Shown one piece after another: positions 3,803-20,612 of a stretch of 32,000 nucleotides of DNA. Position 1 is the first letter of the stretch. Each line of letters starts with the position of its first letter. The notes beneath the pieces are model-generated. The model was not told where the DNA came from. It searched no databases and was given only the letters and a program-made list of their open reading frames with translations. The DNA comes from Halogeometricum borinquense DSM 11551. GTDB lineage: Archaea > Halobacteriota > Halobacteria > Halobacteriales > Haloferacaceae. A program made the translations under genes and the position numbers. Location: positions 1,860,001 to 1,892,000 of the forward strand of contig NC_014729.1 of NCBI RefSeq assembly GCF_000172995.2. The letters run 5' to 3'.

Positions 3803-4597
3803 TTACACGGTCTGCTCGGTCAACACTTTGCTCACGTCGCCCAACGAGTCGAGAACGTAGTCCGGTGTTATTGACGACGCGGCGAGCGTCTCTTCGTCGG
3901 TGACGCCGGTTTTGACGAGTGCCGTCGTCATCCCCGCACGTTCTCCGAGCGCGATGTCGGTGTCGAGTCTGTCGCCGACGACGAGAACGGACTCGGCGGG
4001 GACGCCGAGATGCTCCAGTGCCATGTCGCGGGCGGTGTCTGACGGTTTGCCCAGAACCACATCAGGGTCGCGCTCGGCAACGCCCGCGATAGCGTTGATA
4101 ATCGCGCCGGAGCCCGGAACATCGCGTTCGGCGGCCGGGATGACAGTGTCGGGGTCGGTTCCGATGAACGCCACACCGTCATCCGAAAGCGTCCACAGGG
4201 CCTCACAGAGCGAATCGTAGTCAAACTCCTCGTCCACAGAGGCGACGAGTGTATCCGGCGAGTCGTCGGCTTCGACAACGGACAGCCCCGCGTCGGTGAG
4301 GATATCGACCAATCCCGACTCGCCGACGACGAACAGGTCGTCGTCGGGGCGTTCTTCGCGGAGATATCGAGCGGTAACTGTCCCGGCGGTAATCACCTCC
4401 GACGCCGCCATCTCGAATCCGGCACGAGCGAACCGTTCGACGTACGCTGCGGGACGCTTCGTTGGGTTATTTGAGACGAACACGCGTTCGAGTCCGGCCG
4501 CATCGATGGCGTCTAATCCGTCACCTGATCCCGGTATCGGTTCGTCGCCACGCACTACGGTTCCATCCACGTCGAGGATGACGCCTCGGTAAGTCAT
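3803..4597 (-). CDS. HAD superfamily hydrolase, subfamily IIA (NagD-like sugar phosphatase)
   Basis: 264 aa. GVILDVDGTVVRG (DxDGT motif I)...FVSNNPT...GKPS...LVVGDRLDTDI (motif IV). Confidence 0.9.
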   Translation of the reverse strand: MTYRGVILDVDGTVVRGDEPIPGSGDGLDAIDAAGLERVFVSNNPTKRPAAYVERFARAGFEMAASEVITAGTVTARYLREERPDDDLFVVGESGLVDILTDAGLSVVEADDSPDTLVASVDEEFDYDSLCEALWTLSDDGVAFIGTDPDTVIPAAERDVPGSGAIINAIAGVAERDPDVVLGKPSDTARDMALEHLGVPAESVLVVGDRLDTDIALGERAGMTTALVKTGVTDEETLAASSITPDYVLDSLGDVSKVLTEQTV

Positions 4598-5891: not shown

Positions 5892-6070
5892 ATGCGGTCG
5901 GACGGTCCAACTGTCCGCTAAACCGAATATTCTCATTACTCTTGATTTCGGCGTATCAGGCCTTGAGACGCAATAATAACCATTATGGCCGTCCGGAAAT
6001 GGTATTCAGTTGAACGGCTATTCCATCCGTGAACTCGCGGCGTTGTTCGCGGGCGGAGCCTGCAGGTGGG

Positions 6071-6079
6071 TATATAAAA
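6071..6079 (+). promoter_or_regulatory. TATA-like box (TATATAAAA)
   Basis: tatataaaa at 6071-6079, upstream of the HalOD1 ORF. It argues against ATG 6081 and for ATG 6144 as the start. Confidence 0.3.
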
Positions 6080-6143
6080 GATGGGACGGACTACGTCAGC
6101 AACGACAAAACGTTGCACAGATATTGTATCGAACCCGGAACGA

Positions 6144-6365
6144 ATGACGGTCGAAATCGTCTCCCTTGTCACGGATGTAAAAGGGTGTCAACCGATGGAC
6201 CTCGAACCGCTCTCGAACGTTACGGATCCGGATGCACTGGAAAACTTGATTCGAGAAACGGCGGCAGGCGAGTTCGAGATCGGATTTGACTACGAAGGCG
6301 GACGGCTCTCAATTTCGTCGGATGGAACTATCGAGTTCGACCTGTCTGTGGACCGCTCGACCTAA
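6144..6365 (+). CDS. Stand-alone HalOD1 (halobacterial output domain 1) protein
   Basis: MTVEIVSLVTDVKGCQPMDLEPLSNVTDPDALENLIRE...FEIGFDYEGGRLSISSDGTIEF: the characteristic HalOD1 pattern (xxELPPLyxxvDPDALdxLf ... F.y.g..v.v). The ORF is open from 6081. Confidence 0.7.
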   Translation: MTVEIVSLVTDVKGCQPMDLEPLSNVTDPDALENLIRETAAGEFEIGFDYEGGRLSISSDGTIEFDLSVDRST

Positions 6366-6486
6366 CGTTTCGTCCTGACTGATTCTGTTCGGACGTTCAC
6401 AAAGGATATCGAACGCTGAACGCACAGTTTGCGGAGTGCGCTGCGACCGAGCAGTTTCTTCGTCCCTGCGCTATTGGGACGGTGAT

Positions 6487-6888
6487 CTACGGCTCATAAT
6501 GGCTGACGTGCTCCGGTTTGATCGAGATCATTACGCGTTCGGTCTGGATGGGGTTGGGATACTCGTCTTTCCCCATATACCGCTTTGACATCTCGTCGAT
6601 CTGCTCGCGTGCGCCTTCTGTGGTCATCTCGTCAACCTCTCCCTGAACTGAAAGCATCCGGTAGGGATTGTCCGGATCTGTCATACTGATGGCGACTCGC
6701 GGGTCGTTTCGGATGTTTTTCTCTTTTCGGCGGCCGCGTTCGGTGTTCACTAACAGCCGGTCCGCGTCGACGTCGTAATCGATCCACACTGGCGTCACGT
6801 GTGGGCTTCCATCCGGCAACAGCGTCGATAGATGCGCAAATGTCTGTTTCTCGAACAAATCTTGGAAGTCTGCCGGGATTGATGCCAT
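6487..6888 (-). CDS. Pyridoxamine 5'-phosphate oxidase (PPOX) family / F420-dependent-like protein
   Basis: 133 aa. FAHLSTLLPDGSPHVTPVWIDYD...LLVNTERGRRKEKNIRNDPRVAISMTDPDNPYRMLSVQGEV. Confidence 0.8.
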   Translation of the reverse strand: MASIPADFQDLFEKQTFAHLSTLLPDGSPHVTPVWIDYDVDADRLLVNTERGRRKEKNIRNDPRVAISMTDPDNPYRMLSVQGEVDEMTTEGAREQIDEMSKRYMGKDEYPNPIQTERVMISIKPEHVSHYEP

Positions 6889-7103
6889 AGTGAATATAGG
6901 TGTGAAAGCTACTAATACGCACTTACAGCATTCTGGTAACTACATTCGGGGTTGGATTCGTGGGAGGATCTATTTCGTTCGCAGAGTATTATTTTCTCGA
7001 CGGTTTGGTGCCCATCTTCTCTGTTTACTCGATCCGAACACACGCGACGCGGTACTTGTCAGTCGTAGTTTCGGAGTCGTATAAGGCGGAGAGGTTGTGA
7101 ATT

Positions 7104-7187
7104 ACGGTCGGAGCAAGCTCCTCTCTAGCTCAACTCCTCCTTGTGAACGTCATACTGAACTCACGCGGTACGCGAGCGACAGAGCGC
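7104..7187 (+). repeat. Left direct repeat (attL-like)
   Basis: acggtcggagcaagctcctctctagctcaactcctccttgtgaacgtcatactgaactcacgcGgtacgcgagcgacagagcgc. It matches 10212-10295 except G/T at one position. It is preceded by a degenerate copy (7086-7103) of the tRNA-3'-like stub seen at 10190-10211. Confidence 0.9.
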
Positions 7188-7211
7188 GGACGCTTTCGGA
7201 GTTGGTGCATC

Positions 7212-7511
7212 GTGAGTCTGCTCGACCGACTTCATGAGGAGTACGAGTCCGATGGTTCGCTCGTCCTGTTCCGCTGTACCGAGTGTGGACAGACAGCGAT
7301 GAGTCTCGGTTCACTTCACGCGCACTGCGAGCAGCACCGCGGCTACACGCGCTTTGGTTTCCAGATACCGTTCACGAGAACCTCACCAGCGAACTTTGAT
7401 CAGCTCATGGAGTTAACGGAGGTACTGCGAGTTGAGGAGACGTCCACGATTTCGCTCGCGGACGTGGAGGGGTTGCAGAATACCAAACCGTACGTTTCAT
7501 TCGCGGGCTGA
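7212..7511 (+). CDS. Small C2H2 zinc-finger protein
   Basis: FRCTECGQTAMSLGSLHAHCEQH fits F-x-C-x2-C-x12-H-x3-H, including the conserved Leu. The ORF is open from 7143 (inside the repeat). GTG 7212 (VSLLDRLHEE) is the likelier start, but this is uncertain. Confidence 0.55.
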   Translation: MSLLDRLHEEYESDGSLVLFRCTECGQTAMSLGSLHAHCEQHRGYTRFGFQIPFTRTSPANFDQLMELTEVLRVEETSTISLADVEGLQNTKPYVSFAG

Positions 7512-7657
7512 TCAGGCTCCATTTTCAACGACTATATCAACCCTCAATATAGATACGACAAATAGATATTATTCCATATTCACTAACCAATGTTAATTGA
7601 TTTCATTTCGGTATTTATTTATCCTGACATTTAGTCATCTAGTTGGTACTCTGATAT
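7512..7657 (+). promoter_or_regulatory. Strongly AT-rich intergenic/promoter region in front of the four-gene cassette
   Basis: About one-third G+C by eye. Contains several TATA-like strings (tatttattta at 7612-7621, catttag at 7628-7634) 25-45 nt before ATG 7658. Confidence 0.35.
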
Positions 7658-8113
7658 ATGAGTGATCTAACGAGAAGAAATGTGCTGAGTATTATGGGAA
7701 CAACCGGACTCCTGACGATGGGCACTGGAATCGGTGCTGCGAAGCCCGACACCTATCCTACCGTTGACGATCTCGGTCCCTTCGAAGACATGACGGTCGA
7801 TCAAATGGCTGCTGGTGCTGCGAAACATCCTAATCAGGACCGTATCGCTATCGTCACCGCAGCGTTTGGTGACGGCATTCAGCTCTACATCGCAGACGGC
7901 ACTCGAAATCTCAGTGACACGCCCGAGACAGTCTACCAGATCACCCAGGACGCTGTGGCTGGCGTGTACGAGCCAGAGTGGAAAGACGGGAATCGGCTCG
8001 AATACGTCATGGACTTCACGCGATACACGCGGAAGATAACCCCATCGTACGTTGTTCTGGATCACAAAACTGTGACGGAGAATGTCCTTGACGAAGAGGA
8101 GGGGGATGACTAA
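7658..8113 (+). CDS. Tat-secreted hypothetical protein (151 aa)
   Basis: MSDLTRRNVLSIMGTTGLLTMGTGIGAAKP is a twin-arginine signal. The mature part is acidic with a C-terminal EEEGDD. No family recognised. Confidence 0.65.
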   Translation: MSDLTRRNVLSIMGTTGLLTMGTGIGAAKPDTYPTVDDLGPFEDMTVDQMAAGAAKHPNQDRIAIVTAAFGDGIQLYIADGTRNLSDTPETVYQITQDAVAGVYEPEWKDGNRLEYVMDFTRYTRKITPSYVVLDHKTVTENVLDEEEGDD

Positions 8114-8595
8114 TGGCGTCTCTCCCATTCCCCGTTCCGAGTGGATTCCCTTTCGACCTGTGTACACCAACCCCCAATGGAACACAACTGTGCGTTCAGA
8201 CCGGCAGTATTCAAGAGAACATTGGCGAACCGCGAGACTGTAACGATGGTCAGACTCCCCCACTTGTCTCAGTCGATCTAACCTACCAGGAGAAGACTAT
8301 CTCACTCGGTGACGCTGAGGTACTCGTCGAGAATTCCATATGGATCGGTATCGAAGAGGACCTGAATGCAGTGTGGGTGGGTGAACCGAAGAGTGGCTCC
8401 TGCTACCGCCATAACTTGAATAATATTGATCCTACCGCTGCTCTCGATACTGTACTTAAGAAGGCGGGGGATGCAGCAGACGCCAGTGTCAGAGACCTTG
8501 GTATGAACCCCAACAGCGGCCCTGGCCAAGTCTTGGCACTAATCATCATGGTGGTTCTATTCCTCATAGCTGACGGGGCCCCAGATCCGGTTTGA
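8113..8595 (+). CDS. Hypothetical Cys-containing protein with a C-terminal TM anchor (160 aa)
   Basis: The start overlaps the upstream stop (TAATG at 8111-8115). Contains 4 Cys. The C-terminal hydrophobic segment VLALIIMVVLFLIA is followed by DGAPDPV. No N-terminal signal peptide is seen. Confidence 0.55.
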   Translation: MASLPFPVPSGFPFDLCTPTPNGTQLCVQTGSIQENIGEPRDCNDGQTPPLVSVDLTYQEKTISLGDAEVLVENSIWIGIEEDLNAVWVGEPKSGSCYRHNLNNIDPTAALDTVLKKAGDAADASVRDLGMNPNSGPGQVLALIIMVVLFLIADGAPDPV

Positions 8596-8642
8596 GATCT
8601 GGAGCATAGGCTTTAGATATATTCACAGCTATTTTACATTCA

Positions 8643-8960
8643 ATGGCACTGCTTCGAAATCTCAAGCCAAAAGAAATTGGTGGGTTGATTCTCGCATTGT
8701 TCGGACTGTTACTTTTGCTCTTGGGATCGAACTCACTACTGATGCAAAGTACACTGGTGTTTCTAGGGTTGGTAGGCTTCGCATCGCTACTGGACTTGCC
8801 GTTTCCTCGGCACCATCTTCTTGCCCCTCTGTCACTGGGGGCAGTGGCTTTCGCTATCGTCTCATACCTTCAAGTGGGACTTACTGTGGGGGGAACGGCA
8901 ATCGCTATCCTTGGGATCGCCATTGCATTCATGTATGGACGGAGACAGGAGTTCCTATGA
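8643..8960 (+). CDS. Hypothetical small membrane protein (105 aa, about 3 TM)
   Basis: IGGLILALFGLLLLLLG / LVFLGLVGFASLL / LSLGAVAFAIVSYL...AILGIAIAFMY. A hand-counted 60-nt sample at the 5' end is 43% GC. Confidence 0.6.
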   Translation: MALLRNLKPKEIGGLILALFGLLLLLLGSNSLLMQSTLVFLGLVGFASLLDLPFPRHHLLAPLSLGAVAFAIVSYLQVGLTVGGTAIAILGIAIAFMYGRRQEFL

Positions 8961-9367
8961 CATCGTATCCAGATACTGGATCACGATGGTGGTACGGTGT
9001 TGCGCTCCAGTTGGTAGTCGTAGGAGCGGTCTGGATTGCGTGGGGGACGGTTTGGTTGCTCGGTGTCGAAAGTGCCGGTACCCCTCCGTCGCTCCTGCCT
9101 GCTAACGACGCTGTTGAGATTCCATTTCTCCTAGCGAGTGTCTCCACGGTGTTGTTGATCTTTGCACACTACGTCTTGACACCTGTCTTCAGTATGGGCT
9201 TGTATCTCGACAGCAAGCACGTATCTGCGAACAATGGTGGCAGGTCCCTATTTCGATGGATGTACGCGGCGGTGAGCGTGATACATTTGCTCTCGTTGCT
9301 CCTGCCGGTGATCCAATTCGTGACGCTTCCCGCAGGCGGAGTGTACTTAATTAACAGACACAAATGA
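8957..9367 (+). CDS. Hypothetical small membrane protein (136 aa, about 4 TM)
   Basis: ATGA start/stop overlap with the preceding gene (8957-8960). Hydrophobic segments: WWYGVALQLVVVGAVWIAWGTVWLLGV, FLLASVSTVLLIFAHYVLTPVF, MYAAVSVIHLLSLLLPVIQFV. Confidence 0.6.
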   Translation: MTSYPDTGSRWWYGVALQLVVVGAVWIAWGTVWLLGVESAGTPPSLLPANDAVEIPFLLASVSTVLLIFAHYVLTPVFSMGLYLDSKHVSANNGGRSLFRWMYAAVSVIHLLSLLLPVIQFVTLPAGGVYLINRHK

Positions 9368-9517
9368 GAAACCACAATCAAATGGACATCTCCCTTTTGT
9401 ACTCCGGGAGCCGACTCCCAAGCTGTGTGCCGCCCCGACAGTACGTTACCAATCGCGGCACCTCACTGTTCTCAGAATAACTCGGAGGAACTTCCGAGAA
9501 GAGCCTACTTCCGGTGG

Positions 9518-10140
9518 CTATAGCGAAACCTCTCTCATCGACCTGATGATGCTCTCTTCTGACGGTGCTGCGAGGTAGGGCTCGATTGCGTCGTAACTGC
9601 TCCAACCGCCGCGGGCCATCACGATCCGTGGTGAAATTCTCCCCTCGACGAGCAGGTGGTGCGCCCAGCAGCGGCAGAGATCGTGACTGGAGATGCGCCG
9701 GTAGCCCTGATCGCCTGTATAGTCTGCGGCGGCATCGGCAGCGCGGTCAACCTACGTCTGGACGGTCCGCTTCGAGCGTTGGGCGATAGAGTCAGTCGGT
9801 CCGATCTCGTTGTCGGTGTTCTGGACGTAGCGGTTGATCTGCGCCTCGAGGTTGATCGGGTGCCAGGTGTCACGCTGCTTCCCCCGCTCTGACTGGTCGT
9901 GTCTTTTCCCGCGGTGACTTCGAGTTTGTAGTGACGGCTGTCGGTTCGTCGAGAGATGTCGTTGGGTGTAGGTGTAACGTCGACAACTTCGGCGTCGCAG
10001 TGTTCGGCTTCCGAGTCCGGAACGTACCGGAGGCCGTCAACAAGCTGGTGAACGGCGGATTCAGCGGCGTTACCCCCGCGCTTGGACGGCGCGAGGCTCA
10101 CGCGCAGCACCTCTGCTGGCGGGGCGGTAACGTGAGATAA
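9518..10140 (-). pseudogene. Tyrosine recombinase/integrase pseudogene (N-terminally truncated, one frameshift and one in-frame stop)
   Basis: The C-terminal frame reads KQRDTWHPINLEAQINRYV...RSKRTVQT*VDRAADAAADYTGDQGYRRISSHDLCRCWAHHLLVEGRISPRIVMARGGWSSYDAIEPYL (HxxR box, GGW...Y catalytic Tyr region). TAG at 9752-9754 sits where Trp is expected. The upstream part (...AEVVDVTPTPNDISRRTDSRHYKLEVTAGKDTTSQSGG) is in a different frame, with the junction at 9878-9886. No SAM-like N-terminal domain remains. Confidence 0.75.
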
Positions 10141-10189
10141 GCGTAGAGGTGTCCCTATATATAGGGTGCCGAAGGAATTAAATTCGGAG

Positions 10190-10211
10190 TGAGGTCGGAG
10201 GGATTTGAACC
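10190..10211 (-). other. tRNA 3'-end-like stub (T-loop/acceptor look-alike), not a functional tRNA
   Basis: tgaggtcggagggatttgaacc is near-identical to the 3' end of tRNA-Trp (tggggtcggagggatttgaacc at 10324-10345). The T-stem does not pair and there is no 5' acceptor strand. Confidence 0.6.
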
Positions 10212-10295
10212 ACGGTCGGAGCAAGCTCCTCTCTAGCTCAACTCCTCCTTGTGAACGTCATACTGAACTCACGCTGTACGCGAGCGACAGAGCGC
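10212..10295 (+). repeat. Right direct repeat (attR-like)
   Basis: 83/84 identical to 7104-7187. Confidence 0.9.
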
Positions 10296-10315
10296 TCGCT
10301 CGTTGGTGAGTTCAG
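10263..10315. other. Two-tier hairpin just downstream of the tRNA-Trp 3' end
   Basis: Outer 10-bp stem ctgaactcac (10263-10272) / gtgagttcag (10306-10315). Inner 7-bp stem gcgagcg (10280-10286) / cgctcgc (10293-10299) with loop acagag. It straddles the right repeat boundary. Only the left arm is present in the 7104-7187 copy. Confidence 0.6.
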
Positions 10316-10323
10316 AGTAGAAG

Positions 10324-10501
10324 TGGGGTCGGAGGGATTTGAACCCCCGATCGACTGATATCTCCGGTGTGCGCCTCGGAACTCCAGAGGGTCGTCAACA
10401 CGACCGATGATCAGTCAGTCGCTCAGTATATCAGTCTGGAGTTTCGTCCCGGGCGCGTTGCCTCTGGAGTCAGTCGCCATGCCGGGCTTGGCCACGACCC
10501 C
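10324..10501 (-). tRNA. tRNA-Trp (anticodon CCA) interrupted by a 104-nt intron
   Basis: The reverse complement folds as GGGGTCG-TG-GCCA-AGCCCGGCA-TGGC-G-ACTGA-CTCCAG / 104 nt / A-TCAGT-CGATC-GGGGG-TTCAAAT-CCCTC-CGACCCC-A. This is a complete cloverleaf (74 nt mature) with no encoded CCA. A long intron in tRNA-Trp is a known haloarchaeal feature. Confidence 0.9.
10360..10463 (-). ncRNA. tRNA-Trp intron with C/D-box-type guide elements for 2'-O-methylation of C34 and U39
   Basis: GACTGATAT-A-CTGA is complementary to ATATCAGTC at the intron/3'-exon junction, and the 5th nt upstream of CUGA pairs with U39. TGACGA-CCCTCTGGAGTT-CCGA is complementary to GACUCCAGAGG, and the 5th nt upstream of CCGA pairs with C34. 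The C-type boxes are degenerate (GGGACGA, UUGACGA). Splice junctions are good to +/-2 nt. Confidence 0.7.
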
Positions 10502-10556
10502 GCTCTGCATCTCTTCGTATGGCGATTCGGCATAAAGGAATTTCGATTGGGAGTCG

Positions 10557-10781
10557 TCAGTCGCGGTCGGTCTCGGCCCACTCGCAGTCCTGGCATTTGT
10601 AGGCCGTGACGAACTCCGTGACGCTCGGCATGTAGCCCACCGAGATGACGTTGCCGTCGCACTCCGGGCAGTCCCGGTCTGCATCCTCGATAGACTCGGC
10701 TTCGAGCGGTTTCTCGCCTTCGACGAGTTCAGCCAGTCGTTTGGGCGTCACCATCCGTCCTTCGACGACGCGGTTACTCAT
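10557..10781 (-). CDS. Small zinc-ribbon protein (CPxC...CxxC), 74 aa
   Basis: MSNRVVEGRMVTPKRLAELVEGEKPLEAESIEDADRDCPECDGNVISVGYMPSVTEFVTAYKCQDCEWAETDRD. Four Cys in two CxxC pairs. Acidic. Confidence 0.65.
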   Translation of the reverse strand: MSNRVVEGRMVTPKRLAELVEGEKPLEAESIEDADRDCPECDGNVISVGYMPSVTEFVTAYKCQDCEWAETDRD

Positions 10782-10866
10782 ACGTCCGTGAATGGCAGGG
10801 ATCGTGGTAAGTCCTCCGCGTCACGCGTCGGAGGCTGAAGTCAGTAAGAGAGAAACGAACGTCGGG

Positions 10867-11880
10867 TTAGAGCCACGGCGCACGCGAGTCCTTCTCGGCG
10901 GGGTAGCCGTAGCCCGCATCCCCGGATTCGTCGTCCGGTTGGCTCTGGTTTTGGTTCTGACGCTGGCTCTGGTTCCCATCGTCCGACACGGATGCTGACC
11001 CGTCGCGGTTGCCGCCGTCAGCGACGGCTGCTGGTGCGGACGCGTCGTCCGATTCCTGTTCGTACGTATCCGGATCGTCCGATTCGTGCGAATCTTCCGA
11101 TTCGATGCCGTTCGTGTCCGCATCCAGTTCGGCGTCTTCGGCCGGATCGTCCGCGGCGGGATCGTAGGCGAACAACGCCGTCACGCCGAGGACGCCCAGC
11201 GCGATGGGCCGGTCGGTGGGGAGGACGCCCAACACGTCGATGGCGAGCATGCCGAGTGCGACGGAGCTGCCGAAGCGGAACAGGTTGATATCAACCACAC
11301 CACGGAGACGCGGGCCGAGCATGGCGACGACGAGGGCGAATCCGACGCCCGTCCCGGCCGCCGCGACAGCGTGCAGGATGATCGTCGGATCGGGGTTCGT
11401 TTTCAACTGCGCGTTCGCGGGGTTGAAACTGGCGACCAGCCCGAGGGCGATGATGATGCTCGGGGAGGGAAGCTTCTCGCCCACTTCGGAAGACGCCGTC
11501 TTCGCCGCGACGGCCAAGATGACCAGTCCGGCGAAGCGGTGGAACGTATGGAAGTCCAGCAGCGTCTTGATCGTTGGTGCGAACGCCGCCTCTAACCCGG
11601 CGATGGGGAGCAAAACCACACCGAGGATGAGGACTGACGTCATCTGCTCGCGACGCGTCCCTTCCATCTCTGCGAGGATGACCGCAACGGTCGCGGATCC
11701 GCCGAAGATGAGCAGTCCGGTCTGGATGATATCGACTGGGGTGCTCAGCGCCCCGGCGATGACGAGTGCGGGGAAGATACCGTCTACGAGCGGCAGCGCC
11801 ATGACCGTGGCGAGGAGGCGCGTTGCCCCACCTACCTGTTGCTCTAAGCGAAGCGCGACTGGGTGTTGAGAGACGCTCAT
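10867..11880 (-). CDS. Polytopic membrane protein (haloarchaeal DUF-type) with a ~90-aa acidic/Q-N low-complexity C-terminal tail
   Basis: 337 aa with about 7 hydrophobic segments, followed by DPAADDPAEDAELDADTNGIESEDSHESDDPDTYEQESDD...GNQSQRQNQNQSQPDDESGDAGYGYPAEKDSRAPWL. Confidence 0.75.
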   Translation of the reverse strand: MSVSQHPVALRLEQQVGGATRLLATVMALPLVDGIFPALVIAGALSTPVDIIQTGLLIFGGSATVAVILAEMEGTRREQMTSVLILGVVLLPIAGLEAAFAPTIKTLLDFHTFHRFAGLVILAVAAKTASSEVGEKLPSPSIIIALGLVASFNPANAQLKTNPDPTIILHAVAAAGTGVGFALVVAMLGPRLRGVVDINLFRFGSSVALGMLAIDVLGVLPTDRPIALGVLGVTALFAYDPAADDPAEDAELDADTNGIESEDSHESDDPDTYEQESDDASAPAAVADGGNRDGSASVSDDGNQSQRQNQNQSQPDDESGDAGYGYPAEKDSRAPWL

Positions 11881-11968
11881 TCCGTGTTAGCGGCCGTCAC
11901 CTTCGGCCAAACGGCGATACGGACGCAAACCACGCTCGTCGGTGGATCGTCCGAGTACTCCAAGCATC

Positions 11969-11995
11969 GGAAGATTCGGGAGATTCGGAAGATTC
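11969..11995. repeat. Tandem 9-mer x3 (GGAAGATTC / GGGAGATTC / GGAAGATTC)
   Basis: Read directly at 11969-11977, 11978-11986 and 11987-11995. Lies 90-115 nt upstream of the minus-strand start at 11880, inside a ~420-nt non-coding gap. Confidence 0.8.
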
Positions 11996-12302
11996 CGTTT
12001 CCCAAATTTAAGTGTTCGCCACATCGCTGTAATCATAAAGAGATTGCCGGAGTCGAAGGTCGTCTGACCGGCGATACGCGATGCAGCGGGACACTCGGAG
12101 TCCATACTCGTACAAAACCATACGGAACTATTAAAATTTGTGTGAGAAGTGGCGGCATGGGACTAGATACCTTTCGGGGTGGTTTTTAAATGAGCCTATG
12201 ATGCCTCGGATTTGGAGCAGAGAATTCAAGAATTGTTCGCTGAGTGCCCGTTAATCGAGTGAAAATTGCACGAAGATTCAGTATTAGATTTTGCGAGGAG
12301 AC

Positions 12303-12626
12303 TCACTTCCACGGATTCGAGACTAACTCGGCTTGGACCCCCGGCCCGATTTCGATCCGGCAATCGGTCCGTGGGCGAGCGATACAGCACAAGACGTAGC
12401 CCGATTCGATATGTCGGGTCTTCAGCGCACGCGGTGGGCGGTCGTAGCTGATGTTCCCATCGATCAGTCGGCCGACGCAGGTCGCACATGCGCCCGTTCG
12501 ACATCCGAACGGGAGGCTGATATCTGCCGATTCGGCAGCTTCGAGGATTGTCTCGTCCTCGCTTGCTCGTGTCGTCTCTTCGCGGCCGCTCCGCCGCGTG
12601 AGCGTGAGAGTGTGACGGGAGGCCAT
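12303..12626 (-). CDS. Plant-type [2Fe-2S] ferredoxin (107 aa)
   Basis: Start at ATG 12626 (MASRHTL...). CRTGACATC (C-x4-C-x2-C) plus the downstream YVLCCIARP Cys. The ORF-track 143-aa version extends into the upstream gene and is not used. Confidence 0.85.
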   Translation of the reverse strand: MASRHTLTLTRRSGREETTRASEDETILEAAESADISLPFGCRTGACATCVGRLIDGNISYDRPPRALKTRHIESGYVLCCIARPRTDCRIEIGPGVQAELVSNPWK

Positions 12627-17500: not shown

Positions 17501-18103
17501 ATGAGTGCTGACCAGCCGCTCGTGCTCATCGTGGAAGATGAGCCGGACCTCGCCGACCTGTACGCAACCTGGCTCAGGGAGAAATGTCGCGTTCGCGTCG
17601 CATACGGTGGCCGCGAGGCCCTCGACGAACTCGACGACGACGTCGATGTCGTTCTCCTCGACCGCCGGATGCCGGATCTCTCCGGAGACGAAGCCCTCAC
17701 AGAGATACGGAACCGGGGATTCGAATGTCGTGTCGCCATGGTAACAGCTGTCGAACCGGATTTCGACATCGTAGCCATGGGATTCGACGACTATCTCGTA
17801 AAGCCAGTCTCCAAAGAAGCCCTCGAAGAGACCGTCGAAAACCTCCTCCGACGAAACACATACAACGACGGCGTCCAAGAACTGTTCTCGCTTGCCTCGA
17901 AGAAAGCACTGTTGGAGTCCGAGAAGGACCCTGCGACCTTAGAGGACAACGAGGAGTATCAGGAACTCGACGCGCGCCTCTCGAAGCTTCGCGAGGACTT
18001 AGACGAGACTCTCCAACAGTTCGACGAAGAACGGGATATTGCCGCCGTCTACCGGGATCTCGGCGACACCTCTGCCTTCGAGAATCTCGAGAGTTCTGAG
18101 TAA
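17501..18103 (+). CDS. Response regulator (receiver domain) with a C-terminal HalX domain
   Basis: LVLIVEDEPDLADLY...VVLLDRRMPDLSGDE (phospho-acceptor Asp)...DYLVKP, then a coiled helical tail NTYNDGVQELFSLASKKALLESEK...EYQELDARLSKLREDLDE typical of HalX. Confidence 0.85.
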   Translation: MSADQPLVLIVEDEPDLADLYATWLREKCRVRVAYGGREALDELDDDVDVVLLDRRMPDLSGDEALTEIRNRGFECRVAMVTAVEPDFDIVAMGFDDYLVKPVSKEALEETVENLLRRNTYNDGVQELFSLASKKALLESEKDPATLEDNEEYQELDARLSKLREDLDETLQQFDEERDIAAVYRDLGDTSAFENLESSE

Positions 18104-18301
18104 CGAACAGAAATCGATCTGCTTCGACTGAATGACCCGTAGTGACGACGTTCGTCACGTGTGACTAGTCTAACGGACAGTATACCCCGTGTGAAGCGAC
18201 CACAACGTTTATTTGTAAGAAATTATATCTAAATTGAGTTAATTTCATGTTAGATCTTCTAGAAAAAATTAATCTATCTGGGCGTTCTGTGTTCATACGT
18301 C

Positions 18302-18445
18302 ATGTCCGAAACTGACACGAACGCGGTCGCACAGTACCTTGCCGAACACCCCCGCATGATGGGCGTCCTGTTCACGATGCTGCTGCTGCTCTCACAAGCA
18401 GGTTCAGTCGCAGCGGGAAACAACGCCGGTATCTACGGTCCGTAA
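18302..18445 (+). CDS. 47-aa micro-protein: one hydrophobic segment (signal-peptide-like) plus a 9-aa tail
   Basis: Below the ORF-track cutoff. MSETDTNAVAQYLAEHPRMMGVLFTMLLLLSQAGSVAAGNNAGIYGP. An AT-rich TATA-like string (aaaaaattaatc, 18263-18274) lies about 30 nt upstream. I recall similar small haloarchaeal ORFs, but this is unverified. Confidence 0.5.
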   Translation: MSETDTNAVAQYLAEHPRMMGVLFTMLLLLSQAGSVAAGNNAGIYGP

Positions 18446-18449
18446 ATAC

Positions 18450-20612
18450 TCAAAGACTATCTAAGTCCAGATCGTCACTCCACTGAAGTTGACCATTTAC
18501 GAGTAATGGGATGTTTTCCAGATCCAAGAAGTCATTTAGTTCCTCTAAACTGAGTGTAAACGAATCAACCGAACCGGAACCGAGATAATGAGTCTCGACA
18601 CTCGGAAGCAACGGTATTACGAGCCCACACATTCCAACGTGGCTTCCCGGATATACACGATAATCTACATTGAAACCCTCTGTTGTCCGGGTGATGACAC
18701 ACGTGTTAGGATATAAACCGTCACTCTGCGCAACTGCGAGTCCACCGTCACCGAGGACAATATAGCTGTCACCGACGGCGTTCTCACCGCGGACAAGTCC
18801 AAGTGCACTACGAATCGGAAATCCTTGATTCAGCAACCGAGCAAGCATCGAGCCGACCTCTACGGCACTACTGTTCACAACATCTTCGAGCGTGACGATA
18901 CCGGCGATAGCACCCGCGTTGATCAGGTGCATCCCCTGTTCGTACGACCGGCAGGCGTTGAGTAAGAAGGCGTCCATCCCTACATCGGACAGTGTCGAGG
19001 CGTCCAACGTCCCGTCGGAACACTGGAATCCGTCGTTGTCGATGTGGCCGATGTAGTGGAAGAAGTCCGTCTGTGTGGCGAGGGCCTCGCGGAGTTCGTC
19101 TTTCGTCAGTTCGTACTGGACTTGCACGTCGAACGGAAGCTTTTCGCGCGACCCGTACACCGCTTCTACGTCCTCGCGCTCGTCTGCCATCCGCGGGTCG
19201 TTGCAGACGACGGTGATACCGATATCACCCTCCGTCGGCGACCGATACAGACGATTGCGGTACGCTTGCAGGGATGCTTTGCTCGCCCCGATGGGCGTCC
19301 CGTCACCCAACCACGCCTGCTCGAGCGAATCCGTTTTCTCGGGTTGGACGTAGCTTCGTTCGGGTAACGATGCAGACTGCGTCGCGCTCCGCGTAAACCC
19401 GGCGTTGGGGGTCTGCGGCGACGACCGCAGGAAGGCATCGACTGCCTCCGCCTGTGTCGTCGAACCCGCCGACGGTTTCGTGTGTGGCGTCCGAACGATT
19501 GCCAAGTCGTTTGCAACGAACGGAAGCAGTTCGACGTTCCCCGGCGTCGGCGTCACGTGCGTCGTGAGTTTCCACTCGGGAACGTGCCCGGCGACCGTCT
19601 CGTACGGAACCTGTAGGTAGGCTTCGACCTGTTCGGCCGTGGGTCGGTCGTACAACGCGGCAAAGTCGAGATCAAGGTCCGATTCGACCGCTTGCCGTTC
19701 GTGCAACTCGACCTGATAGTAGCCTTCCGTTCGAGTGAGACAGTCGAGGAAGAACGTCTGCTTCAGAACGCGCTCGACTTCCCGCTCGTACCCCGCGGTT
19801 GTATCGAGGTCGTATGTGAATCCGCTGTCAGTGCGAAGTCGCGGCGTGTCGCCTTCCACGACGGTTGCACCGAGATAGTACGCTAACGGTGCCGCCACGT
19901 ACACGTGCCGATACGTCGCCGGCAGTTCGAGCGTGATGCCCGTCTCCGGCGGTGCCAAATCTGGCGGTGCTTTGAACTGCTCGCCGCGTTCGATAAGCGG
20001 CGGATGCCCGCGGAGTGTGGGATACGAGCGTTCGGGCGACGTCGATTTCAATGCGGACCCGAGAAGCGACACCGCGCGCATCATCGAACGCGGGTCGTCG
20101 GGTGTCGTTATCGTCGCTGCCGGTCGCTTGTGGTGTGACCGCGCACCGACGAGAACCTCCGTTTCCTCGTCGAACGAGATGGTCGTCTGCGTCGCATCGG
20201 AAGTTATCGTCACCGGTGCGTTGACGCGTACGTACGTCTTCACCGGGGCGAACAGTTCGAGACTGTACGTCGCGCGCGGGAACGACTCCGAGGCGAAGTG
20301 TTCGGTCTGGCCGAGCATCTGTCCCTCGTCGTCGCGGATGCAAACTGAGACGACCGTCTGGAGTTCGAGCTGATCCGTTTGGAAGCGAACTGCGGCGTCA
20401 GCGGGGAACCAGAACGCACTCGGGTCGGTGGGTTCCGGGTCGATCACCGAAGGTGTCGAAAGTTCGAACTGATGACGCTCTATCGGGTCGGTAACCACGA
20501 CTCCGTCACCCCCGGATGCGGCGTCGAGCGAGAGTTCGAGATACGTCTCTGAACTATCAAATGACGGCGAACTCTCAGAATCCCCGAACCCTTCCATCAT
20601 CTTTTCAGTCAC
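18450..20612 (-). CDS. 720-aa protein: unknown N-terminal ~460 aa plus a C-terminal CHAT (caspase-like cysteine protease) domain
   Basis: GITVVCNDPRMADEREDVEAVYG...LTKDELREALATQTDFFHYIGH(523)IDNDG...GMDAFLLNAC(554)RSYEQG...AGAIAGIVTLEDVVNSSAVEVGSMLARLLNQGFPIRSALGLVR follows the CHAT consensus. His codon at 19044-19046, Cys codon at 18951-18953. Confidence 0.75.
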   Translation of the reverse strand: MTEKMMEGFGDSESSPSFDSSETYLELSLDAASGGDGVVVTDPIERHQFELSTPSVIDPEPTDPSAFWFPADAAVRFQTDQLELQTVVSVCIRDDEGQMLGQTEHFASESFPRATYSLELFAPVKTYVRVNAPVTITSDATQTTISFDEETEVLVGARSHHKRPAATITTPDDPRSMMRAVSLLGSALKSTSPERSYPTLRGHPPLIERGEQFKAPPDLAPPETGITLELPATYRHVYVAAPLAYYLGATVVEGDTPRLRTDSGFTYDLDTTAGYEREVERVLKQTFFLDCLTRTEGYYQVELHERQAVESDLDLDFAALYDRPTAEQVEAYLQVPYETVAGHVPEWKLTTHVTPTPGNVELLPFVANDLAIVRTPHTKPSAGSTTQAEAVDAFLRSSPQTPNAGFTRSATQSASLPERSYVQPEKTDSLEQAWLGDGTPIGASKASLQAYRNRLYRSPTEGDIGITVVCNDPRMADEREDVEAVYGSREKLPFDVQVQYELTKDELREALATQTDFFHYIGHIDNDGFQCSDGTLDASTLSDVGMDAFLLNACRSYEQGMHLINAGAIAGIVTLEDVVNSSAVEVGSMLARLLNQGFPIRSALGLVRGENAVGDSYIVLGDGGLAVAQSDGLYPNTCVITRTTEGFNVDYRVYPGSHVGMCGLVIPLLPSVETHYLGSGSVDSFTLSLEELNDFLDLENIPLLVNGQLQWSDDLDLDSL

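Follow-up and report, generated by a model that had tools for sequence, protein, structure and literature searches.

What do two almost identical 84-bp direct repeats beside a tRNA gene mark? The question is raised by a 32,000-nt stretch of the genome of the haloarchaeon Halogeometricum borinquense DSM 11551 (contig NC_014729.1, positions 1,860,001 to 1,892,000; hereafter the window, from whose first letter positions are counted), in which the repeats occupy positions 7104–7187 and 10212–10295. The window matches contig AOHT01000051.1 (GCA_000337855.1) at 100% identity, and its proteins bear the C499_ locus tags of that strain. The recomputed alignment bears out a match at 83 of the 84 positions, the sole mismatch being a G at 7167 versus a T at 10275, and no such match appears in 100 shuffles of the sequence; at 95% identity, the repeat is 95 nt long (7093–7187 and 10201–10295). 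The right copy ends 28 nt from the 3' end of an intact tRNA-Trp gene, recognized by the Rfam model RF00005. A preliminary description, made from the letters alone, took the repeats for attachment (att) sites that bound a decayed integrative element. The observation of the repeats and the adjoining tRNA is confirmed, and the interpretation is partly supported: a decayed integrative element at tRNA-Trp is the right reading, but the att architecture is wrong. With a probability of roughly 0.7, we interpret the locus as a stack of successive site-specific insertions at the T-loop and 3' end of tRNA-Trp, in which the repeats would be the centres of two small insertion units that recently exchanged sequence, not the duplication made when the element integrated.

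The tRNA-Trp gene (anticodon CCA, taken from the sequence) lies on the minus strand at 10324–10501, contains an intron of ~108 nt, matches RF00005 over its full length (1–71; 45.7 bits), and is 98% identical to its counterparts in H. pallidum and H. limi. Intron-containing tRNA-Trp genes are typical of haloarchaea, and because of the intron, ARAGORN finds no tRNA either in the window or in 12 tRNA-Trp loci; tRNA detection here rests on Rfam in its place. The sequence really duplicated by the insertions consists of the last 22 nt of the tRNA, starting from G52/53, followed by CT (core copy 1, 10322–10345, minus strand), that is, a 24-nt direct repeat for which a pattern search yields two matches against none expected. 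Two further copies of this core, both overlooked in the preliminary description, directly abut the 84-bp repeats. Core copy 2 (10188–10211, minus strand), next to the right repeat, is identical to the tRNA 3' end at 23 of the 24 positions and forms the proximal junction of the integrative element, between ...GACCTCACT and CCGAATTT. Core copy 3 (7080–7103, minus strand), next to the left repeat, is a displaced and decayed old tRNA 3' end that matches at 12 of 24 positions without gaps, and at 79% with one gap when aligned to the Halopelagius copy. Beyond it, positions 7035–7077 (minus strand) hold an older tRNA-Trp trailer or hairpin remnant, homologous (81% over 43 nt, E-value 1e-8) to the sequence directly 3' of tRNA-Trp in Halopelagius and Haloferax. 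Because this remnant matches the native tRNA-Trp flank of other genera, all of 7104–10345 is inserted relative to the older tRNA 3' end. Left of 7080, just the hairpin-1 part of a third, fully decayed unit is recognizable. A further possibility, that the 84-mer is a diverged tRNA-Trp intron, was rejected, since it resembles neither the intron nor the body of the tRNA.

Each 84-bp repeat is the central part of a ~135-bp two-hairpin unit that ends in a copy of the tRNA 3' end; we denote these units U. The tRNA-proximal unit, U(a) (10188–10323, minus strand), consists of a 28-nt spacer, the right repeat and core copy 2, folds into two hairpins at roughly 10263–10315 and 10190–10260 (-52.1 kcal/mol), and is matched by a covariance model of the unit at 10197–10250 with 57.6 bits. 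Within it, the right repeat takes in half of hairpin 1 (the 3' one), a T-arm copy that is both inverted and decayed (GGAGGAGTTGAGCT), an inner hairpin (GGAGCTTGCTCC) and the GACCGT end. The distal unit, U(b) (7080–7221, minus strand), consists of a diverged spacer (7188–7221), the left repeat and core copy 3, and matches the model at 7088–7142 (30.9 bits, E-value 1e-4). Between the two lies the integrative element of ~2.97 kb (7222–10187), which starts right after the ...GACCTCACT of core copy 2 and stops at the diverged spacer of U(b). Along the tRNA strand, we read the order as the tRNA, U(a) (a 134-bp two-hairpin mini-insertion), a tRNA 3'-end copy, the element, U(b), a decayed tRNA 3'-end copy and the older trailer remnant, where each insertion would supply a fresh tRNA 3' end and displace the old one downstream. 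U(a) and U(b) appear to be members of one repeat family, and in the lineage of DSM 11551, gene conversion or a local copying event has probably led them to exchange sequence recently. The element could either have entered together with U(b) as a single "loaded" unit, of which U(b) would be the distal arm, or have landed in a pre-existing array of units like that of H. limi, the junction having since eroded.

All four H. borinquense genomes contain U(b), and they differ in U(a). Strain RZHH01 is 99.8% identical to the window and has the same layout; an apparent 127-bp deletion of its left repeat was rejected, being a 10-N scaffold gap. JAXCMF01 and CP048739.1 (about 95–97% identical) carry the same element and cargo, with the tRNA joined straight to the integrase leader: they lack exactly the 134 bp between two 24-nt cores, that is, U(a), and have the 84-mer once, at the far end only. 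This layout bears on the reading of the preliminary description, in which one ~3.1-kb element integrated via an 84–95-bp att site 28 nt downstream of tRNA-Trp, the repeats being attL and attR. The 83/84 identity with sharp ends, the integrase adjoining one repeat and the extension of the repeat by 11 nt into the tRNA-like core all speak for such an event, and recombination anywhere within the unit-core tract of a host with a solo unit would yield the same picture. However, att sites are expected in two copies wherever the element is present and in one copy at an empty site, whereas the same element, with shared integrase lesions, occurs with a single copy in CP048739.1 and JAXCMF01, H. limi has at least two copies of the 84-mer without the element, and H. 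pallidum has none; the duplication at the junction is the 24-nt tRNA end. Furthermore, alignment of all copies of the 84-mer reveals derived states common to the two window copies (CACAA for CACGA and GGAGTTG for GGATTTG) that appear neither in the U(b) of the other strains nor in H. limi. An integration older than the ~3–5% divergence between the strains should have left several differences between the repeats, and U(b) itself differs by 7–11% between strains. Given these private shared substitutions, the near-identity of the repeats is younger than the strain split, whereas the element with its shared lesions is older. We consider integration via the repeats very unlikely; judging from the alignments, their near-identity is the mark that two members of a repeat family bear when one has recently been converted by, or locally copied from, the other, and not that of att duplication.

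The locus is still eroding in CP048739.1 (locus L134), where two deletions are apparent relative to the window: one of 84 bp (window 7003–7086), which took the remnant of the old trailer along with part of the decayed core, and one of 271 bp (window 7385–7655), which took the 3' part of the zinc-finger open reading frame (ORF) described below.

For comparison across species, we collected 80 syntenic loci, one genome per species, via the neighbouring DUF5795 protein; nearly all of these have tRNA-Trp just downstream. In H. pallidum, the distance from the tRNA to the GCH_III gene is 593 nt versus 4432 nt in the window, and the element, the PNPOx gene and the repeat are all missing. In H. limi, the tRNA is followed by 2.3 tandem modules of spacer, 84-mer homologue and tRNA 3'-end copy, with no genes between. 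The preliminary description had predicted an empty site with a single 84-bp copy in close relatives; element-free sites were found in these two species, but none with a single copy. Its proposal of a horizontally acquired insert at the 3' end of tRNA-Trp with a dead tyrosine recombinase is supported by the element-free sites, whereas its att duplication fails here too, given that H. limi, Haloferax marinum, Halorubrum and others have the unit behind tRNA-Trp with no element, and that related forms of it follow other tRNAs. A repeat dispersed over many unrelated loci had been named as grounds for abandoning att sites; the units come close to this but are always tied to a tRNA 3' end.

The gene-free units also bear on the alternative that two full-length elements integrated in tandem and the tRNA-proximal one was later deleted down to its last 110 bp, now seen as U(a). 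It is common for elements to integrate in tandem at tRNA genes (PMC8371274). U(a) is nearly identical to the distal end of the element, but its 28-nt spacer has no match to the sequence that precedes the left repeat, and it is collinear with the gene-free H. limi unit. Units of uniform size (102–134 bp) occur at many independent sites, an outcome that repeated exact deletions would not give. We find this course of events barely credible.

Under the scheme of successive insertions at the tRNA 3' end, the enzyme that integrated the element would be a short (201–203 amino acids), catalytic-domain-only tyrosine recombinase, now a nearly full-length pseudogene at 9521–10100 (minus strand) delineated by six-frame translation, tblastn and its lesions. 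The preliminary description had placed a tyrosine-integrase remnant next to the right repeat, and tblastn confirms it there, with 61–62% identity over the C-terminal 121–123 amino acids to 201-residue site-specific integrases from Haladaptatus and Actinarchaeum plasmids (E-value 8e-47 for the two segments combined against one query and 9e-45 against the other; one frameshift and one in-frame stop). The match of the remnant to Pfam PF00589 (E-value 3e-4) is under the cut-off, and in NCBIfam the remnant weakly matches the catalytic half of archaeal XerA. The protein database contains 205 homologues, almost all of 201–203 amino acids with PF00589, the closest being those of Haloferax volcanii DSM 14919 (77%) and Halogranum (74%); none was found in IMG/VR. 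We compared the recombinase frames in two copies. The window copy has a frameshift near 9885, a Trp-to-stop change, and HDLCR in place of HDLRR, that is, a replaced catalytic Arg, and the JAXCMF01 copy has a different frameshift, by which the catalytic Tyr is lost, whereas a deletion of ~20 amino acids at the N-terminus and an insertion of 10–12 amino acids are common to both. These shared lesions indicate that the gene was already damaged in the common ancestor of the two strains, and the element appears to be old and immobile, predicted to be inactive in excision and integration. A split integrase of the SSV (Sulfolobus spindle-shaped virus) type was rejected: the integrase gene has its start region as well as its C-terminus on the proximal side, in-frame stops occur in the repeat, and no N-terminal integrase part is found near 7188–7500.

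The leader of the integrase gene (10101–10187, minus strand) contains the CCGAATTT..TTCGG motif and a palindrome, CCCTATATATAGGG (10153–10166), that is TATA-box-like in look. This leader is collinear with what lies upstream in the intact members of the family: a CCGAAWWTCGG motif and then the promoter region. In the place where these relatives have a conserved palindrome (TTGCACGnTTnTATAGAAACGTGCAA) and the next ~31 nt, the element has the tRNA core. This 10-6-10 palindrome lies ~100–130 nt upstream of the start codon in all six intact members examined (L010 6696–6721, L011 6700–6725, L014 7867–7892, L016 7866–7891, L097 7865–7890 and L098 7871–7895 of the short-recombinase loci), some of which carry another palindrome like it immediately ahead of the ATG (for example, L014 7971–7997); it looks like a lox- or dif-type cognate site or an operator. 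In Halogranum (L016), a larger, unrelated element begins at the same tRNA-Trp junction as that of core copy 2, right after ...CCCCACT, with the 74%-identical recombinase 7.7 kb inside, which ties the short-recombinase family loosely to tRNA-Trp insertions. No second att copy was found within the fetched flanks of the Halogranum and Haloferax relatives.

Two of these loci have further peculiarities. In the Halogranum locus, a 16-nt tRNA-Trp stretch at 243–258 (CCTCTGGAGTACCGAG, from the intron/exon region) recurs perfectly inverted at 399–414, 140 nt downstream and just inside the insert. In H. volcanii DSM 14919 (L014), the short recombinase gene (8001–8612) ends ~110 nt before a CRISPR array (8724–12468) of 55-plus repeats (Rfam CRISPR-DR24), beside cas6/cas8/cas7, and a perfect 101-bp tandem duplication occupies 4083–4284, upstream of a DUF7845 gene.

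The element as such is ordinary and of a known kind: small inserts bearing an integrase have been well documented at haloarchaeal tRNA genes (PMC7002104, PMC3119063, PMC8371274); tRNA-integrated elements or defective proviruses include divSEG15, divSEG30 and the 3.2-kb divSEG14 of Halobacterium salinarum (PMC7002104) and insertions with 22–43-nt tRNA repeats at tRNA-Ala and tRNA-His of Haloquadratum walsbyi (PMC3119063). Like these, the element is a strain- or species-specific insert that adjoins the 3' end of a tRNA and has a tyrosine recombinase gene beside the tRNA, a far border marked by a 22–27-nt direct repeat of the tRNA 3' end, a few uncharacterized genes and atypical GC content. As in the classical, non-split tRNA elements, it encodes the tyrosine recombinase (the pseudogene 9521–10100), has a repeat of the tRNA 3' end at its distal border, with the caveat that U(b) lies between the element and this distal copy, and has empty sites in relatives (H. 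pallidum and H. limi). It differs from the haloarchaeal tRNA elements in that its ~200-residue recombinase elsewhere sits beside its own palindromic site, not beside tRNAs, that it is embedded between two copies of a hairpin unit, and that the far tRNA copy is heavily decayed. As a decayed element, it is useful for annotation and unsurprising; it also supplies a correction, namely, that an integrase lying between long and nearly perfect direct repeats need not be flanked by att sites, the true scars here being the short copies of the tRNA 3' end.

Behind the recombinase gene, the element carries five small cargo genes of low GC content on the opposite strand. The preliminary description listed these as a zinc-finger gene and four hypothetical genes; all of the ORFs are present, but the C2H2 assignment is weak, with E-values of 0.005–0.01 that are below the cut-offs. 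This C2H2-like ORF (7212–7511, plus strand), the GTG start of which lies within the diverged spacer of U(b), has 73% DNA identity to an 88-residue ORF on a Natrinema megaplasmid. The other four, all on the plus strand and in no known family, are c151 (7658–8113), whose N-terminal TRRNVL resembles a Tat signal; c160 (8113–8595), with a hydrophobic C-terminus and 67% DNA identity to the DL31 megaplasmid; and the predicted membrane proteins c105 (8643–8960) and c136 (8957–9367), the latter with 98% amino acid identity in JAXCMF01. On the DL31 megaplasmid, the c160 homologue is followed by an ORF of c105-like size, and homologues of c151, c160 and probably c105 sit between copies of the insertion sequence (IS) IS4. 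Searches of Pfam, PHROGs, NCBIfam and PADLOC returned nothing above thresholds for cargo function; the only PHROGs matches are to the integrase. The interior is AT-richer than the flanks, as the preliminary description had it, for the cargo (7222–9520; 51.6% GC versus 59.1% for the whole window) but not for the integrase part (60.7%) nor against the left flank, the low-GC zone extending past the left repeat (5892–7079, 52.2%). Low GC content and megaplasmid homologues would fit a horizontally moving cargo. A whole-segment blastn comparison with 50,697 phage records gave no matches, and no similarity to a pleolipovirus or any deposited haloarchaeal virus was found; in plasmids, the integrase and short cargo stretches were matched and nothing else. 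Identity as a provirus of the pleolipovirus or SNJ2 type, or of another known haloarchaeal kind, was rejected, there being no similarity to virus genomes or to virion or replication genes in these searches. A scan for bacterial-type promoters and terminators was uninformative.

The U units are a different matter. On the tRNA strand, a unit consists of four parts: (i) a hairpin, which in the window reads CTGAACTCAC...GTGAGTTCAG and has GCGAGCG/CGCTCGC as its inner stem; (ii) an inverted T-arm copy with the consensus GGAGGATTTGAAYC, decayed in the window copies; (iii) a short centre, (A)GGGAGC, a variable hairpin and GCGACCGT; and (iv) a direct tRNA copy from G52/53 through the discriminator base. 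Two Halorubrum (Hrr.) species form a clean filled/empty pair: compared with Hrr. tropicale, Hrr. tebenquichense has a 102-bp insertion flanked by 22–23-bp repeats of the tRNA end, and the native trailer that follows the tRNA in the empty species is found behind the unit in the filled one. A covariance model derived from 25 units and run over 1.54 Mb has all its matches immediately 3' of tRNA-Trp; they fall in 12 of the 80 species loci and in the H. borinquense copies. Clean insertions of a unit alone behind tRNA-Trp span 102–134 bp, and eroded copies are visible in Hrr. coriense and strain Atlit-26R. A pattern scan of metagenomes produced 34 loci (L100–L133), with units of this design behind tRNA-Leu(CAA) in at least 14 and others behind tRNA-Leu(UAA), tRNA-Thr(CGU), tRNA-Gly(GCC), tRNA-Asp(GUC) and tRNA-Trp; in the Trp, Leu and Thr units, the direct copy bears the acceptor strand of its own tRNA. 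Among these loci, two classes of centre can be told apart, AGGGAGC...GCGACCGT and a longer stem of the GAGGAC/GTCCTC type. On contig L100, two different units follow tRNA-Trp, and the distal tRNA-end copy is the more eroded, as successive insertions at the tRNA would give. The pattern of the unit had no matches in IMG/VR, and in the plasmid and phage collections, the consensus matched only tRNA-like stretches of 22–25 nt. In Rfam 15, no family matches the unit at E-values up to 1, the only match at the locus being the tRNA itself.

Four of the metagenome loci (L102, L103, L112 and L113) have for an inverted arm a perfect reverse copy, 23 nt long, of the 3' end of another tRNA (GGTTCGAATCCCTCCGCGTCCGG).

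How such units arise and spread can be framed in two ways. One is that they are host RNAs, either structured RNAs or processing or termination elements of the tRNA trailer, co-transcribed with the tRNA and multiplied by unequal crossing-over, with the integrative element inserted between two of them. The folding is in line with this: in 24 of the 25 canonical units, folding favours the sense (tRNA) strand over the antisense strand by 2–10 kcal/mol, the energy gap stemming largely from a conserved G-rich motif with tandem G-A in units that are related to each other. The differences between inverted and direct arms are mostly G-U-compatible transitions (U-G at one position in 14 of 25), the inner stems covary (for example, GCGGAC/GTCCGC versus GAGGAC/GTCCTC), the units are found only directly 3' of tRNAs, and the tRNA-end copies are near-perfect across genera. 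Folding and covariation are suggestive of a folded sense strand, which could be RNA or single-stranded DNA. Against a host RNA stand the occurrence of the unit at tRNA-Trp in just ~15% of species, its clean presence or absence between close relatives, the arrays in which decay of the copies progresses distally (in L100 and the window), the decayed inverted arm in the window copies, the lack of an Rfam family, and the same centre behind unrelated tRNAs, each with the cognate 3' end, which is typical of insertion. We regard the host RNA explanation as unlikely.

The other framing is that the 84-bp repeats belong to a family of miniature (~100–135 bp), gene-less, site-specific insertion units of Halobacteria, which would insert in the T-loop of tRNA-Trp, tRNA-Leu and tRNA-Thr, and probably tRNA-Gly and tRNA-Asp, rebuild the tRNA 3' end, and pair the inverted with the duplicated T-arm in a hairpin. 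This design, which is also that of folded attachment sites such as the integron attC and the CTX-phi attP, suggests that the unit might integrate in the form of one folded strand, by means of a recombinase supplied in trans; the sense-strand folding advantage in 24 of 25 units would be in line with recombination of such a strand by a tyrosine recombinase. The integrative element could be a cargo-loaded relative of such units or a lodger among them. We put this forward tentatively, as possible rather than probable. The family appears to be undescribed: its architecture is not found in the searchable literature, which does not prove that no description exists.

Several known systems share features with the units. 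Folded single-strand sites include the integron attC and the hairpin attP(+) of CTX-phi that is used by XerCD. As in these, U is an imperfect palindrome with conserved outer arms that reproduce the duplex target (here, the T-arm) and a variable, structured, covarying centre, and it exhibits strand asymmetry and a bulged base; the inverted arm, the loop and the hybrid site stay at one end after integration, and tandem arrays form. By contrast, its arms are the tRNA T-arm, not R'/R'' or dif, and it has no matches in virus and plasmid collections. In Streptococcus thermophilus, integrative and conjugative elements (ICEs) form accretion arrays with cis-mobilizable elements (CIMEs), which are kilobase-sized ICE deletion derivatives. 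The locus is similar in having three att-type copies in a row and a recombinase-less, att-flanked unit in tandem with a recombinase-bearing element, with one unit lost in some strains by recombination between att copies; unlike CIMEs, U measures just 102–134 bp, has a fixed two-hairpin design and is found at several different tRNAs. MITEs (miniature inverted-repeat transposable elements) as well as repetitive extragenic palindromic doublets forming hairpins (REPINs), both of them non-autonomous repeats that form hairpins, resemble U in being about 100 bp long with inverted arms, no coding capacity, multiple copies and presence/absence polymorphism. Unlike MITEs, the units are strictly at the tRNA T-loop, the fixed duplication of 22–24 nt is the tRNA 3' end in place of a short, variable duplication of the target, and one "terminal repeat" is the target; identity as MITEs was rejected on these grounds, one of the 15-nt inverted arms being the duplicated tRNA T-arm. 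Uniform two-hairpin units at five or more tRNA species, in many haloarchaeal genera and in metagenomes, could be worth following. Should they prove mobile, no smaller site-specific integrating units would be known in archaea, and they would be tractable for the study of how tyrosine recombinases, or another enzyme, use hairpin sites there; should they prove to be RNAs, they would constitute a class of tRNA-trailer element that is new.

Several points weigh against the reading of the locus as stacked insertions with exchanged unit centres. The argument for gene conversion rests on two clearly derived shared positions. A gain of U(a) in the DSM lineage is indistinguishable from ancestral presence with loss in the other strains; the first H. 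limi unit is collinear with the tRNA and U(a) of the window and 90% identical to them. Between the element and U(b), no tRNA 3'-end copy can be detected (local alignment against shuffles, p = 0.47); two cores therefore bracket the element cleanly only if U(b) is regarded as belonging to it. As for the recombinase, the six other family members examined (of 205) all carry the upstream palindrome and no T-arm, and within the fetched flanks, a tRNA gene is found for the Halogranum member and for none of the other five; with the palindrome in place of the T-arm and few tRNAs nearby, the role of the enzyme as the integrase of this element is unproven. Finally, nothing shows present-day mobility of any part.

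Several minor observations were made in addition. In Halorubrum tailed virus 25 (MZ334521.1/NC_062759.1, 31085–31109), a 25-nt stretch matches CGT plus the tRNA-Trp 3' end (92%), which is possibly an attP-type fragment or a tRNA gene. A PNPOx/PPOX-class F420-dependent oxidoreductase gene in 52% GC DNA (window 6487–6888, minus strand) belongs to the same 90%-identity cluster as a Haloferax mediterranei protein and is missing from the interval between tRNA-Trp and GCH_III in both H. limi and H. pallidum; the gene probably belongs to an older layer of horizontally acquired DNA at this hot spot. The HalOD1-domain ORF (window 6081–6365, plus strand) matches the NCBIfam model DdfA (disk-determining factor) with 54.6 bits, below the 70-bit cut-off, and has a 55%-identical homologue at the same position in H. 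limi. Between these two genes, JAXCMF01 (L012, 11713–12510) has an inserted IS605 OrfB/TnpB (Cas12f-like) gene that the window lacks. Other dips in GC content within the window are at 18001–19000 (50%) and 12000–12250 (52%), and degenerate short repeats (CGGATCGTCCGATTCG, four copies) at 11041–11158 lie in the acidic C-terminal part of a DUF5794 gene.

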